Source of the DNA: Escherichia coli
GTDB lineage: Bacteria > Pseudomonadota > Gammaproteobacteria > Enterobacterales > Enterobacteriaceae
Length of the DNA stretch: 64,000 nucleotides
Assembly: GCF_013315695.1 (NCBI RefSeq)
Contig: NZ_CP054353.1
Direction: 5' to 3' (one strand)
The stretch's first letter is position 1. The number at the start of each line of letters is the position of its first letter. Made by a program: the position numbers and the translations under genes. The notes beneath the pieces were generated by a model that saw nothing but the letters and a program-made list of their open reading frames with translations, made no database searches and was not told the DNA's origin. Shown piece after piece: positions 20,726-26,084 of the stretch.

Positions 20726-22915
20726 TTAATCAGCTAATGGCTGCGGGCGACCAATCAAATACCCTTGCAGATATTGCACCCCGAGCTTATGCAATAGCGC
20801 CTGCTGCTGTTGCGTCTCGACAAACTCAGCGACCACACTCAATGACTTCGCTTTCGCCAGATCGGTAATTGATCTCACAATCATCGCATCCAGCGTATTC
20901 GTGACGATATCTTTCACAAAGACGCCATCAATTTTGATGATATCAGCCTGCAAACGTTTTAACCGTTCGTAGTTGGCATAGCCGGTGCCAAAGTCATCAA
21001 TCGCAATCCGGAAACCAAACTTATGCAGTTGCTCGATGTTGTACATGCTGCTTTCTGCGTTAGAAAACGCCTGCTCCTCGGTGATCTCAAGAATGACCGC
21101 CTGCGGGGAGATGTAATAACGCTTAAACAGACGAATAATCCGCCCGGCAATATTCTTTTGCAGCAGCGTGAGCGGCATTAAATTGACTGAAAATCGTGGA
21201 CCTTTTTTGTCGCAAGGGTGTGTTGCCAGCCATTTCAACAAGGATTCCAGCACTTGCAAATCAAAACGCGCGCTAAGGTTAAACTGAGCAATAAGGGGCA
21301 GAAACTTATCCGGGGTCATAATGCCGCCGTCATACTTCAGTCGCGCGAGGATCTCATCATAACCTTCACCCTCTTTGTTGCGAATTGGCTGGGCGTAGAG
21401 CAGCAAATCACCTTGATCTAACGCCGTGCGAATGGTATTCAGCAATAGCACCTGTTTAGTGGTTTGCCCGGAAACCATCTCCTCTCTGCTATCCAGCGCC
21501 AGCACATGATGATGTGCGCAGGATTGCTCCGCCAGCCAGCTTAACTGCCCCAACAAGGGTTGCAGGGTTTCCTGATTTCCATCAAAATGCCCCCAGGCAG
21601 CACCATAGCCCATATCCAGCCCGGTATTGTTCCAGTGAATTTGCCGACTATTCAGGATGTTAACCATATGCTGGAGTCGCCCTTCCGTTTCCGGTCCACT
21701 CAGCACTAACAGCAGTTCACTACCCGGCAATTGATACAACTTTTCGTTTTCCTGCATCAACGGCAGCAGCGTACGGTAAATTGAGCTGATACAGTGAACG
21801 CGCATCATTAAGCCGTAATGACGACTCATAAACTCAAGATTATCAATGCGCAGGCAACAAAAACTCTTGCCCGCCTCTTGCTCCGGCGCTTGCTCCAACG
21901 CACGAAAGTTGGGTAGGAGCGTTAACGGATCGGTCAGCGCCTGCAAATGCCAGCGGCGGTTAAGCCATTCACTACGATGATAAATACGCACCATATAGAG
22001 CAGGCAAACACTAAAGGAAATCAGTACTGCGAGAATAAATGCCAGCGAATATTCGGTTAGTACCCCTTGCAAAAAGTTCTGGTTATAATTCAGAAGGCAA
22101 AGCGTTGAAACAGCCCAGGTGAGATTTAAAAACGGATAGCGAAGCTTACCGACACCGAGGGTAAAGATGATAAAGAAAACAGGTACCAGGTAACCGGCAA
22201 TAAAGTCATTTTCATACGGTGTGCACATCAGAAGTAGCAGCACGCTAAGAGCTGCCAGCCAGCTTAAGGTAAATGCGCGTTTCTCTTTGCTCAACGACGG
22301 AGCGATATCCCTACGCCACAATATCTGTGCAAAGTGGGGACTTACAATCATGCGGGTGAGATAGTAAAAAAGCATGTTGTAAATCAGCACTGCGGTGAAA
22401 AGGCTTAGCAAATCAACGACCGTGAAAATGGCATCCGCATCGCCGAAAAAGGTAGATATCTTTAGCGGAAAATCAAAGAAATTTCCCACAAGATACATGC
22501 TGCATTTGATGCCAATCGGCGCCACCAAACCAAGCCAGAACAGACGTTGCCAGACGTATCGGCTGGTCAATCCATAACGCCAACGCGTCCCCAATTGCAA
22601 GCGTAATATTGCACAGGCACACAGGACTGCAAACGCCTGGCTGCCGATCATGACGGCGGTCTGTAAAAAAGTGAGATGAAGGTTCCACAGATTGGTGCAA
22701 AACATCCCGCATAAAATGGGAACGACACCACGCCAGCCAAAGATAAACAAGATTGACAGCATTACGCACAGTGGCATCCACGCCAGAAAGATATAATTGG
22801 AATGGATAACAGCAAGTGGCGAAATTAAACGGGATAGCTGAATAAGTACCACGGTGAGCGTAAACGCTAGTGTGAATATCTTGATATTTTTTATCAGGTT
22901 ATGCTCCACAAACAT
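20726..22915 (-). CDS. pdeA: c-di-GMP phosphodiesterase with N-terminal membrane sensor, degenerate GGDEF and EAL domains, 729 aa
   Basis: ORF 20726-22975; chose ATG at 22915 (MFVEHNLIK); multi-TM N-terminus and C-terminal EAL-type sequence (EITEEQAF..., DDFGTGYA). Confidence 0.8.
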   Translation of the reverse strand: MFVEHNLIKNIKIFTLAFTLTVVLIQLSRLISPLAVIHSNYIFLAWMPLCVMLSILFIFGWRGVVPILCGMFCTNLWNLHLTFLQTAVMIGSQAFAVLCACAILRLQLGTRWRYGLTSRYVWQRLFWLGLVAPIGIKCSMYLVGNFFDFPLKISTFFGDADAIFTVVDLLSLFTAVLIYNMLFYYLTRMIVSPHFAQILWRRDIAPSLSKEKRAFTLSWLAALSVLLLLMCTPYENDFIAGYLVPVFFIIFTLGVGKLRYPFLNLTWAVSTLCLLNYNQNFLQGVLTEYSLAFILAVLISFSVCLLYMVRIYHRSEWLNRRWHLQALTDPLTLLPNFRALEQAPEQEAGKSFCCLRIDNLEFMSRHYGLMMRVHCISSIYRTLLPLMQENEKLYQLPGSELLLVLSGPETEGRLQHMVNILNSRQIHWNNTGLDMGYGAAWGHFDGNQETLQPLLGQLSWLAEQSCAHHHVLALDSREEMVSGQTTKQVLLLNTIRTALDQGDLLLYAQPIRNKEGEGYDEILARLKYDGGIMTPDKFLPLIAQFNLSARFDLQVLESLLKWLATHPCDKKGPRFSVNLMPLTLLQKNIAGRIIRLFKRYYISPQAVILEITEEQAFSNAESSMYNIEQLHKFGFRIAIDDFGTGYANYERLKRLQADIIKIDGVFVKDIVTNTLDAMIVRSITDLAKAKSLSVVAEFVETQQQQALLHKLGVQYLQGYLIGRPQPLAD

Positions 22916-23122: not shown

Positions 23123-23198
<76 letters not shown>

Positions 23199-23237: not shown

Positions 23238-23313
<76 letters not shown>

Positions 23314-23345: not shown

Positions 23346-23374
23346 ATCATATGAATTCCGCCCGAATGTGTCAA
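23346..23374 (-). promoter_or_regulatory. sigma70 promoter of the alaW-alaX tRNA operon
   Basis: Minus-strand TTGACA (-35), 17-bp spacer, TATGAT (-10), then GC-rich discriminator GCCGCCC typical of stringently controlled stable-RNA promoters. Confidence 0.6.
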
Positions 23375-23548
23375 CGGCAAATTGCAACGTGTAGTTTCAA
23401 TCGCTGAAAAATCAGGCAAATGAACAATTTTGGAAAACCGCTCGCATTCAGTAGTTATTCATGTCACGGTTTCCTGTAAAGTGGTGTTATAAAATGAACT
23501 ACTAATAGACCCACATACATTCAGGGAATTGTTATGTTCAAGGAGAGG

Positions 23549-23893
23549 ATGACGCCAGATGAACTTGCCAGACTGACCGGCTATAGCCGCCAGACCATTA
23601 ATAAATGGGTACGCAAGGAAGGCTGGACAACGTCACCAAAACCAGGCGTCCAGGGTGGCAAAGCTCGACTGGTTCACGTCAATGAACAGGTTCGTGAATA
23701 TATTCGCAATGCTGAACGTCCAGAAGGTCAGGGAGAAGCGCCAGCCCTTTCTGGTGATGCGCCGCTTGAAGTGTTGCTGGTGACACTGGCGAAAGAGATG
23801 ACGCCAGTTGAACAAAAACAGTTTACATCCTTGCTTCTGCGGGAAGGGATTATCGGATTATTACAACGCTTAGGGATTCGCGATAGCAAATAA
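23549..23893 (+). CDS. yfeC: small HTH DNA-binding protein (YfeC), 114 aa
   Basis: ORF 23534-23893; chose ATG at 23549 with AAGGAGAGG upstream; N-terminal HTH-like segment (ELARLTGYSRQTINKWVRKEGW). Confidence 0.8.
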   Translation: MTPDELARLTGYSRQTINKWVRKEGWTTSPKPGVQGGKARLVHVNEQVREYIRNAERPEGQGEAPALSGDAPLEVLLVTLAKEMTPVEQKQFTSLLLREGIIGLLQRLGIRDSK

Positions 23894-23894
23894 T

Positions 23895-24287
23895 ATGAAA
23901 AGATTACGCAATAAAATGACCACCGAAGAACTGGCTGAATGCCTCGGTGTGGCTAAACAAACTGTTAACCGTTGGATCAGAGAAAAAGGCTGGAAAACGG
24001 AAAAATTTCCTGGCGTGAAAGGCGGTCGTGCCAGACTTATTCTGGTCGATACGCAAGTTTGCGATTTTATTCAGAACACGCCAGCCTTCCATAACACGCC
24101 GATGCTTCTGGAAGCCGAAGAACCCCTTGCCGAATACGCACCGGGGATTCGCACTCCTGCTTATCGGCAAATCATCAGCGCAATAGACAACATGACTCAC
24201 AGTGAGCAGGAAAAAGTTGCGCAATTTTTGTCACGCGAAGGAATTCGTAATTTCCTTGCTCGTCTCGACATAGATGAATCAGCTTGA
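23895..24287 (+). CDS. yfeD: small HTH DNA-binding protein, paralog of YfeC (YfeD), 130 aa
   Basis: Shares the motif EELA..LG..KQT.N.W.R.KGW.T...PGV.GG.ARL with yfeC; start is 1 bp after the yfeC stop. Confidence 0.8.
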   Translation: MKRLRNKMTTEELAECLGVAKQTVNRWIREKGWKTEKFPGVKGGRARLILVDTQVCDFIQNTPAFHNTPMLLEAEEPLAEYAPGIRTPAYRQIISAIDNMTHSEQEKVAQFLSREGIRNFLARLDIDESA

Positions 24288-24326
24288 CATCCTCCACGCC
24301 CTGAATGACGAGGATCCCTGCTACGT

Positions 24327-25535
24327 TCAGGCTGTCACCTGAATCATTTCGGTGGGTTCCTGCTTCAACGAGCGGCCTGACTGCACCATCTCTCCACAGG
24401 CAAGAACGGCGTGCCCCGCCGCTAAAATGTTACGAGCGCCATTTACATCAGCGTTCGCTGTATATCCACATGCCTGGCATCTGAATTTACTTTGTGACAG
24501 GCGATTTTCTTTCGCTGTATGACCACAGCACGCGCAACGCTGGCTTGTGTACGCTGGCGGAACAGCAAGCACCTGACCGCCACGCCAGAGCTGCTTGTAC
24601 TCAAGCTGGCGGCGCATTTCATACCAGCCCTGATCCAGTATCGAACGGTTTAAACCTGATTTTGCCCGGACATTGCGCCCCGGCTGGCTGACCGTACCCG
24701 CTGCTGACTTTGACATGTTGCTGACCTTCAAATCCTCAATGACTATCATTGCGTGGTTTTTGCTGACGGTCGTTGTGACTTTGTGAAGGTAGTCCCTGCG
24801 GATATTTGCGATACGGGAATGCAGTCGCTGTATTTTGCGTTTCTGCTTCTGCCAGTTATTGCTGAATTCGACCTTGCGGCTTAACTGTCGCTGAAGTCTC
24901 GCCAGCGTCTTCTGGTTTTTCTGAAAACTGTTTACAGGCTCAAAGACTGTGCCATCTGACAGCGTGGCGAGTTTAGCCACGCCAGCATCCAGCCCGACCA
25001 TTGATGCTGAAGGGTGAACCGGAGTGGATACTTCACTTTCTGTCTGAATACTGATGTACCACTTACCGCAGGACTGGCTGACAGTGACATTTTTCACAAC
25101 ACCCGTGACCTGACGGCTGTTCCGGTAGCGCATCCAGCCAAGTTTCGGCAGAAAAATACGGCTGTTTTCCTGATCGAGCTTAACGCCCTGCGGGTAGCGG
25201 AATGCATCATTCTGTCCCCGCTTTTTGAATCGGGGAAAAGCAGCCCGCTTCTGGAAGAAGTTTTTGTAAGCCCGCTCAAGGTCTTTCAGTGACTGTTGCA
25301 ATGGCTGTGAGGGCGAATCTTTAAGCCATTGCATTTCAGTGGCGTTTTTCCACTCAACCAGCCAGGAAGCCATTTTCCCGTAAGGGATGTATTTATTACC
25401 GGCCTCATGATTCTCATTCTGAAGCGCCAGAGCACGATTGAAAACGAAACGACATGCGCCTGCGAAGCGCCTCATTTCACACTCCTGTTGACCACCTGGT
25501 CTTAACTGGAATTTAAATGCCTGTAATCGTTTCAC
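24327..25535 (-). CDS. tnpB: TnpB (OrfB) RNA-guided endonuclease of IS200/IS605 family, 402 aa
   Basis: Conserved N-terminus ([10 protein letters not shown]...[13 protein letters not shown]), RuvC-I VGLDAGV, Ruv[12 protein letters not shown], zinc finger CACCGH...CQACGY, Ruv[17 protein letters not shown] start at 25535 has no SD, internal ATG at 25475 has strong AGGAG and would give 382 aa. Confidence 0.85.
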
Positions 25536-25542
25536 AGGTCAA

Positions 25543-26030
25543 ATGATACTTTGGTCTGTGAAAAAAGAAACCGATATCCGGCGTGGAAGGCATTGTGTTT
25601 TCCTGATGCATGTTCACCTGGTCTTTGTCCCAAATACCGACGCCAGATTTTTGACCATGACGCGACAGAAAAACTACGCACTTACTATTCAAATGTATGT
25701 GCTGATTTTGAAGCTGAACTGGTTGAAATGGATGGCGAACCAGATCACGTCCATTTGTTAATTAACTATCCTCCCAAACTGGCGATATCCAGTCTGGTAA
25801 ACAGCCTCAAAGGCGTATCGGGTAGGTGACTGCGACGAGATCGACCAGATATTGCAGTCAGGTATTACTACAAAGGCGTTTTGTGGAGTCCTGGCTATTT
25901 TGCCAGTAGCTGCGGAGGTGCGCCAATATCCGTCATCCGCCAATACATTGAACAACAGCAAACACCTGGTCAGGTGGAAAACCGCGCCTTATATCCCCGC
26001 CCTGAAGGACGGGGTTTTACGGCGCACCGG
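25543..26030 (+). pseudogene. tnpA: tnpA (IS200/IS605 Y1 HUH transposase), disrupted
   Basis: TnpA-like sequence is split: ...HCVFLMHVHLVFVP in one frame, KYRRQIF...DHVHLLINYPPK...SLKGVSGR in another (about 1-nt loss near 25628-25631), then an in-frame TGA at 25827-25829, then ...WSPGYFASSCGGAPISVIRQYIEQQ. Confidence 0.65.
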
Positions 26031-26040
26031 ATAAATAAAA

Positions 26041-26067
26041 AACGGCAGGGGTATCTCTCCTGCCGTT
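26041..26067. terminator. gltX rho-independent terminator (bidirectional hairpin)
   Basis: AACGGCAGG-loop-CCTGCCGTT 9-bp stem; on the minus strand followed by TTTTTTATTTAT, 18 bp after the gltX stop. Confidence 0.65.
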
Positions 26068-26084
26068 TATCTTTTATGCGCTAA

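Follow-up and report, generated by a model that had tools for sequence, protein, structure and literature searches.

The locus considered here raises the question of whether two small adjacent genes lying between tRNA genes and a mobile element belong with that mobile DNA or are regulators of their host. The genes, yfeC and yfeD, were studied in a stretch of 64,000 nucleotides from Escherichia coli (assembly GCF_013315695.1, contig NZ_CP054353.1), hereafter called the window. A first-pass annotation, made from the letters of the window, had presented them as tandem duplicates coding for small DNA-binding proteins that might be regulators or an addiction-like pair. We find that yfeC-yfeD is an already catalogued and partly characterised E. 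coli regulator pair in a conserved operon, and an ordinary one. The mechanism that we consider probable combines a Mu-repressor-type winged helix and a C-terminal oligomerisation hairpin in the proteins, coupled expression of the two genes, repression by YfeC and probable negative control of the operon. The pair is defined by the following features:

23534–23893, plus strand: yfeC, 119 amino acids from a conserved ATG (114 amino acids plus stop if read from 23549); open reading frame (ORF) list, raw sequence and PF07037
23895–24287, plus strand: yfeD, 130 amino acids plus stop; ORF list, raw sequence, BLASTP, PF07037 and AlphaFold2
24285–24287, plus strand: TGA stop codon of yfeD, with bases that come from the start of an insertion sequence (IS)

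BLASTP aligns YfeC with YfeD over 124 columns at 36% identity and 54% positives (E-value (E) 4e-26), which is far beyond chance. The alignment holds an N-terminal block, ELA..G..QT.N.W.R..GW.T...PGV.GG.ARL, and a C-terminal one, REGI...L.RL.I..S. Both proteins match the YfeC-like family PF07037 along the whole profile (positions 1–122 of 122), with 173.2 bits for YfeC and 203.9 bits for YfeD at a cut-off of 22.9 bits. This family was formerly known as DUF1323, and YfeC (b2398) and YfeD (b2399) of strain K-12 are its founding members. The layout common to the two proteins is a winged helix-turn-helix (HTH), a linker and a leucine-rich helical hairpin. The two genes are separated by a single base, TAA-T-ATG, in both the ORF list and the raw sequence. 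Thus, the duplication with common N- and C-terminal blocks and the 1 bp spacing read from the letters alone both hold.

Of 5426 complete E. coli genomes, 5425 contain the yfeCD region. We extended the comparison to other species by a scan that used a seven-sequence alignment as query and one genome per species. In the best 80 of the 221 relatives retrieved, a yfeC-like gene is followed by a yfeD-like gene at every one of the 80 Enterobacteriaceae loci; most of these loci also have gltX next to the pair, and about three quarters have pdeA. The genera covered include Escherichia, Citrobacter, Salmonella, Enterobacter, Klebsiella, Raoultella, Kluyvera, Kosakonia, Leclercia, Lelliottia, Trabulsiella and Pluralibacter. 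More divergent family members, Cronobacter among them, are likewise tandem pairs beside gltX; a single-copy relative stands beside gltX in one metagenomic locus (L087), whose GltX is 74% identical to that of E. coli. The family is small: a set of 1.84 billion proteins contains 128 representatives at E ≤ 1e-3, and the named members are all Enterobacteriaceae. Between the yfeC stop and the yfeD start lie −20 to +9 nt in 84 of 85 loci, and 49 loci have a spacing of exactly 1 nt; therefore, co-transcription and translational coupling are conserved features. Gao et al. 2021 (PMC8464067) also treat yfeCD as one operon and as a direct target of YfeC, so that the expression of the pair as one unit, suggested in the first-pass annotation, stands.

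The median ratio of non-synonymous to synonymous substitution rates over 92 genome pairs is 0.075 for yfeC and 0.098 for yfeD. Purifying selection acts on both genes, as judged from their codons. The two do not evolve alike: mean identity among orthologues is 71% for YfeC and 55% for YfeD, and the DNA-binding domain is near-invariant in YfeC, not in YfeD. This asymmetry explains why yfeD appears in Wolf and Koonin among the genes for which best-hit orthology is problematic. Taken on these comparisons, yfeCD is a core, vertically inherited locus of Enterobacteriaceae.

Several loci depart from the common arrangement. Enterobacter sp. BIGb0383 (L079, 4636–5779) has three tandem genes, yfeC and two yfeD-like ones. 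Truncated yfeC genes are found in Escherichia sp. MOD1-EC7003 (L003, 4883–4999) and Enterobacter sp. EA-1 (L076, 4639–4950), and pdeA is absent or fragmented in several other genera (L014, L053, L065, L076).

The folds closest to YfeC and YfeD are those of Xis, BldC, RacA and pSK1 Par. In the AlphaFold2 model of YfeD, a disordered linker (residues 62–87; predicted local distance difference test, pLDDT, down to 50) leads to a short two-helix hairpin, and no effector domain is seen. A sequence search of solved structures with YfeC alone pointed to the N-terminal domain of MuA (E 0.013); with the family profile (hmmsearch), the same domain (1tns) was found at E 3.6e-5 and the repressor c of phage Mu (1g4d) at E 0.021. 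The profile comparison by hhalign with ten Mu c homologues gave a probability of 96.9% and E 1.9e-10 over 114 columns, and matched YfeD residues 5–120 to residues 14–135 of the 196 of Mu c. This alignment takes in the wing signature W..T...GVKGGKA and also the C-terminal module, MTxxEQxxLxxLLxREGIxGLL against ELEPDEARKALKLLSKGGLLALM. This C-terminal stretch adjoins the leucine-rich region through which Mu repressor oligomerises. In the reverse direction, Mu c reaches 23.1 bits on PF07037 (cut-off 22.9) through its residues 42–132, and both YfeC and YfeD match phrog_7148, the Mu c family, weakly.

On these profile comparisons, we regard the YfeC-like family as a shortened chromosomal homologue of Mu repressor c. 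In the library searched, no paper was found that mentions yfeC together with bacteriophage Mu, and the link may thus be new to the literature. It offers a structural and mechanistic template for a family without a solved structure. As for the DNA-binding fold suspected at the outset, the opposite outcome, no such fold, did not occur, and the published chromatin immunoprecipitation with exonuclease digestion (ChIP-exo) data mark both proteins as regulators.

These data come from Gao et al. 2021 (PMC8464067), where both proteins were tagged and shown to bind DNA. YfeC, which carries the K-12 annotation of a dual regulator, was assigned 50 sites with a TTC-rich inverted repeat, was classed as a local regulator and mostly represses (16 of 20 direct targets); for YfeD, the supplement gives at least 36 sites, most of them different from those of YfeC. 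Deletion of yfeC raised yfeD expression by log2 4.3 (ca. 20-fold; adjusted p-value 5e-133). In the same deletion, ybaQ, a gene with a YfeD site (signal-to-noise ratio, S/N, 29.7), went down by log2 5.2 (ca. 36-fold).

The analysis shows the DNA-binding fold and the conservation, while dimerisation, the promoter, autoregulation and the cascade described next are what we infer. One extended −10 promoter 5′ of yfeC probably drives both genes, and translation of yfeD is coupled to the yfeC stop codon (UAA-U-AUG); the comparison of loci shows this arrangement to be conserved. The winged helix at the N-terminus of each protein is of the Mu-repressor/excisionase/MerR type; by homology, DNA would be contacted by helix two, QT[IV]N[KR]W[IV]R, and by the wing, GV[KQ]GG[KR]A. 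A variable flexible linker connects it to the C-terminal leucine-rich two-helix hairpin, and the hairpins of two subunits may form a four-helix bundle, such that inverted repeats are read. YfeC would hold the operon down and YfeD would repress ybaQ. We propose this YfeC-YfeD-ybaQ cascade because yfeD rises about 20-fold and the YfeD-site gene ybaQ falls about 36-fold when yfeC is deleted.

Several points weigh against the proposed mechanism. ChIP-exo coordinates were converted from NC_000913.2 with an offset of about +1978, consistent with annotated neighbours. The only YfeC peak assigned to yfeC (2516052–2516085, NC_000913.2) lies at the 3′ end of the tRNA gene alaX and its terminator, ca. 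400 bp 5′ of yfeC; it is thus not at the promoter, and ChIP is liable to artefacts at tRNA genes, a highly transcribed one being poor evidence. Polarity of the deletion construct, for which Gao et al. (PMC8464067) give no scar description, could explain why yfeD rises 20-fold. A matrix derived de novo from the K-12 sequence of 14 strong YfeC ChIP-exo sites is weak (8–9 bits, TTTCGGAAA-like) and 40% of YfeC sites are intragenic, so that specific operator recognition is not well established. The case for dimerisation consists of a single fused-chain prediction with no homodimer control, and Foldseek, run with this fused C-terminal model on the PDB, returned no matching bundle, so that the four-helix bundle has its support in the pTM value of the model.

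In the fused model, the C-terminal ca. 45 residues of YfeC and of YfeD were joined by a 25-residue Gly/Ser linker and predicted with 37 paired orthologue sequences. The predicted template modelling score (pTM) was 0.59, with 21% of the chain being disordered linker, and the helices had pLDDT values of 83–87. The prediction suggests that the two hairpins pack in a defined way. It backs dimerisation in general and does not tell a homodimer from a heterodimer.

The same model bears on the view that YfeC and YfeD form an obligate heteromer joined through their C-terminal hairpins, which would fit the predicted packing of the two modules (pTM 0.59), the coupling of translation conserved across genera, favouring equimolar synthesis, and the one strong ChIP-exo site that both proteins have, at the 5′ end of sfsB (S/N 28.6 and 57.6). 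We think such an obligate partnership unlikely: the site lists barely overlap, with 1–2 common sites among the 50 of YfeC and at least 36 of YfeD; the two proteins evolve at very unequal rates (orthologue identity 71% versus 55%) and only YfeC keeps a near-invariant DNA-binding domain; at least one locus beside gltX (L087) is single-copy; and cells lacking yfeC are viable and express yfeD strongly. Nor do we put much weight on an architectural, nucleoid-associated role, in which the proteins would polymerise head-to-tail on T-rich DNA with low specificity in the manner of excisionases and BldC. The nearest folds, the low information of the motif and the share of intragenic sites agree with it. 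Mu repressor, too, oligomerises over arrays of sites, which also speaks in its favour. Such a role appears very unlikely given the palindromic motif (E 7e-10), the number of sites, only 50, and the local-regulator class reported for YfeC in Gao et al. 2021 (PMC8464067), as well as the 20 bound genes that change expression in the yfeC deletion.

A type II toxin-antitoxin module, the addiction-like pair of the first-pass annotation, would likewise have two small genes side by side and an HTH protein; in 2007, RASTA-Bacteria ranked yfeD/yfeC as a confident new pair of this type, a K1 study echoed it, and sub-threshold, HTH-level matches to PF15943 (YdaS_toxin) are seen, which are weak (E 0.0014–0.037). 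Both partners are, however, paralogues of one HTH family, no toxin domain was found in Pfam, NCBIfam or PADLOC, all of which gave matches at the HTH level only, the one in PADLOC being to mad1, and both proteins bind DNA in vivo. The yfeC deletion grows normally with yfeD 20-fold up, and yfeC deletions are viable in K-12, K1 and enterohaemorrhagic E. coli (EHEC). The patchy, mobile-element-linked distribution expected of such a module is not that of yfeCD, a core and syntenic locus with purifying selection on both genes that is absent from phages and genuine plasmids. We therefore consider an addiction module extremely improbable, and the recurring toxin-antitoxin label is without support. A domesticated remnant of a Mu-like c/ner switch, formed by YfeC/YfeD and sfsB/nlp, is a further reading, and one that we find quite unlikely. 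A Mu-like phage repressor would have been captured beside gltX before the radiation of Enterobacteriaceae and then shortened and duplicated; YfeC and YfeD would still behave like Mu repressor, oligomerising through the leucine-rich segment on T-rich sites, with sfsB/nlp as one target. The product of sfsB is 64% identical to Ner of phage Mu (E 5e-29), the first ca. 50 nt of sfsB (L099, 1110–1165) are the only strong ChIP-exo site common to YfeC and YfeD, and a GAAAGTAATTTC palindrome occupies codons 2–5 of sfsB. This spot may simply be prone to ChIP signal, because a YciT peak also lies 70 bp upstream, and sfsB is not among the differentially expressed genes of the yfeC deletion (Gao et al. 2021, PMC8464067), which weakens the c/ner reading. 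If true, such a remnant might cross-talk with incoming Mu-like phages. The Mu homology also suggests a testable reason why enterobacteria have retained both a pair resembling Mu c and a gene resembling that for Mu Ner.

A tie of the pair to the neighbouring tRNA genes or mobile DNA, the other part of the initial proposal, did not survive the comparison of genomes. The junction of yfeD with the IS occurs in 535 of 5426 E. coli genomes, and the pair itself is core; the phylogenetic profile against the neighbouring IS was negative, that is, the pair does not travel with the IS. A tblastn search of 50,697 phage records returned no YfeC or YfeD relative, and 2.9 million viral contigs (IMG/VR) gave HTH-level matches of 21–37 residues only and no full-length relative. 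Among 72,556 plasmid records there were 13 matches, of which at least five are in chromosome-sized records, while several others resemble chromosomal fragments. The nearness of yfeCD to the tRNA genes and the IS is incidental.

Returning to the probable mechanism with YfeC as repressor, the phenotypes ascribed to yfeC deserve a second look. Deletion of yfeC leads to more extracellular DNA (Gao et al. 2021, PMC8464067) and, in the K1 study, to less colonisation of the small intestine and less lethality; in an EHEC yfeC mutant, expression of the locus of enterocyte effacement was unaffected. The extracellular DNA and K1 gut colonisation phenotypes may partly reflect yfeD overexpression, and their re-examination is due. 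For genome annotation there is little consequence, these being known genes with published binding data.

The start of yfeC is annotated in two ways: the RefSeq Prokaryotic Genome Annotation Pipeline (PGAP) gives a protein of 119 amino acids in this strain, and the K-12 annotation one of 114. The ATG at 23534, five codons 5′ of 23549, is kept in 87 of 89 loci examined. The codons from 23534 on encode M-[FILV]-K-[ED]-R, where the Arg codon varies synonymously (AGG/CGG/CGA/CGT/AGA), and this ATG has a Shine-Dalgarno-like box of its own, AGGRAA. Because the upstream ATG is conserved, with synonymous variation of the Arg codon and a box of its own, we favour the 119-amino-acid YfeC as the more likely form.

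The region upstream of yfeC contains the following features:

23123–23198, minus strand: alaX, tRNA-Ala(GGC); ARAGORN, Rfam tRNA (63 bits) and K-12 annotation
23238–23313, minus strand: alaW, tRNA-Ala(GGC); ARAGORN, Rfam tRNA (63 bits) and K-12 annotation
23346–23374, minus strand: alaW promoter, TTGACA-17-TATGAT (11 of 12 positions), followed by a GC-rich discriminator; promoter scan, invariant in 31 genera
23395–23411, strand-neutral: palindrome TTTCA-ATCGC-TGAAA(AA); alignment of 31 upstream regions and matrix scan
23485–23493, plus strand: putative yfeC promoter, an extended −10 element (TGtTATAAA), with TGyTATAA in 30 of 31 genera

Transcription of alaX and alaW is divergent from that of yfeC, and the strong promoter at 23374–23346 serves the tRNA operon, not yfeC. 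The promoter of yfeC is putatively the extended −10 element at 23485–23493, ca. 40 nt 5′ of the ATG at 23534, which was missed by a strict −35/−10 scan. Just 5′ of it, the 31 upstream regions have two conserved blocks, GTCAC..TTTC and CTCGCA, which are candidate regulator sites. The Rfam scan returned nothing above threshold besides the two tRNAs.

The block bearing the palindrome, GTTTCAATCGCTGAAAAATCAGGC (23395–23416), is kept in 31 genera, and its centre is ca. 70 nt 5′ of the predicted alaW start. With the crude YfeC matrix, the palindrome at 23395–23411 (best match 23397–23410) scores highest in the intergenic region, at 10.5–11.3 bits, which places it in the top 0.01–0.03% of window positions. 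The classic position of Fis sites at stable-RNA promoters is ca. 70 nt upstream of the start. From its position, the palindrome is probably a Fis-type upstream activator site of the tRNA-Ala operon. For this reason, it was not assigned as a YfeC operator. The operator region of phage Mu, scanned with the same matrix, gave 9–13 matches where 2.4 were expected, among them repeats such as CTTTTCAGTAAT; AT-richness of that region confounds the excess, and stretches of equal length elsewhere in Mu gave ca. 3 matches, so that this is only a hint.

In this strain, the annotated gene order is pdeA, alaX, alaW, yfeC, yfeD, the IS200/IS605 element, gltX and valU, and 981 bases around the pair are 100% identical to several clinical isolates. 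The 5′ half of pdeA/yfeA (22000–22700, minus strand) differs from K-12 at 5–12 positions per 100 nt, and the 3′ half at 1–3 per 100. Downstream of yfeD, we distinguish these features:

24284–26030, minus strand: IS609-like IS200/IS605 element; boundaries from the empty K-12 site and annotation in identical genomes
24327–25535, minus strand: tnpB, intact, 402 amino acids; ORF list and RefSeq annotation
ca. 25543–26000, plus strand: tnpA (Y1 transposase) pseudogene, frameshifted; ORFs 25551–25829 and 25881–26084, RefSeq
26040–26075, strand-neutral: bidirectional terminator hairpin; terminator scan, inverted repeat and K-12 comparison

The IS sits inside the last sense codon of yfeD (window positions 24282–24290 and 26028–26036), where K-12 reads ...TCA GC|A TAA ATAAAAAAC. 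It provides the T that completes GCT (Ala130) and then the TGA stop, so the length of YfeD is unchanged. The minus-strand flank at the tnpA-side end is TTTAT, a typical IS200/IS605 target. In K-12, a terminator follows yfeD within a few bases, then comes gltX, and it serves both genes; here, the IS pushes this terminator 1.75 kb away from yfeD. The element is absent from K-12; it is a lineage-specific insertion, a neighbour only and not part of the yfeCD unit. With tnpA frameshifted, this copy is probably immobile, and TnpB may still be expressed. Because the tnpB-side end abuts yfeD, any guide RNA made by the element would run antisense to the final bases of the gene. Within the 3′ end of tnpB, at the place expected for the scaffold of the TnpB guide RNA, Rfam gave a sub-threshold match to RAGATH-18 RNA (24357–24400, minus strand; 29.5 bits versus a gathering score of 44.9, E 0.01).

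The 3′ part of yfeD itself differs from that of K-12. Between 24100 and 24199, 28 of 100 nucleotides differ, mostly synonymously, and over the whole gene 27 codons differ synonymously and 9 non-synonymously, with the differences concentrated beyond codon 57, while yfeC and the 5′ part of yfeD differ from K-12 by 0–3%. YfeD of this strain is 98% identical to that of Escherichia sp. MOD1-EC7003 and 96% identical to that of E. albertii. These sequences suggest that the 3′ third of yfeD is recombinant and came from a divergent lineage of Escherichia.

Compared with K-12, the pair thus occupies the orthologous position between alaW and gltX and codes for proteins that are 100% (YfeC) and 93% (YfeD) identical; unlike K-12, this strain has an IS in the last yfeD codon, a yfeD cut off from its terminator and a divergent yfeD 3′ third. 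The small winged-helix proteins of the MerR and excisionase types (Pukovnik Xis, 4j2n; BldC, 6amk; RacA, 5i41; pSK1 Par, 8csh) are 21–24% identical to YfeC and YfeD, which differ from them in having an extra linker and C-terminal hairpin and lack an integrase, partition or sporulation context. As in an excisionase, the winged-helix fold is present, but the conserved neighbourhood contains no partner integrase and no attachment sites; the neighbouring IS, which most genomes lack, relies on a Y1 HUH transposase. The MerR model PF13411 was missed (12–13 bits versus 21.6) and only the generic HTH_17 was passed, by YfeD alone; “MerR family”, as PGAP calls YfeD, is thus right only in a loose sense.

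The closest comparison is with Mu repressor c and the N-terminal domain of MuA (PF02316; 1qpm/1g4d and 1tns). On PF02316, YfeC scores 14.8 bits versus a threshold of 23.3 and YfeD has no match, while four of 17 YfeC-like family members reach E ≤ 0.1, the best of them 3.1e-6. YfeC and YfeD are not members of PF02316, because the threshold is missed, the last ca. 60 residues are absent and the genes are not in a prophage. Mu c has 196 amino acids, whereas YfeC and YfeD end at the equivalent of position ca. 135 and so have neither the remainder of its oligomerisation region nor its C-terminal tail. They are also chromosomal core genes, with no prophage and no adjacent ner, A or B, and their identity to Mu c is ca. 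20–26%. What they have in common with the phage proteins is the wing signature W-x-[TK]-x3-4-GVKGGKA, followed by a collinear segment that ends in a leucine-rich helix.

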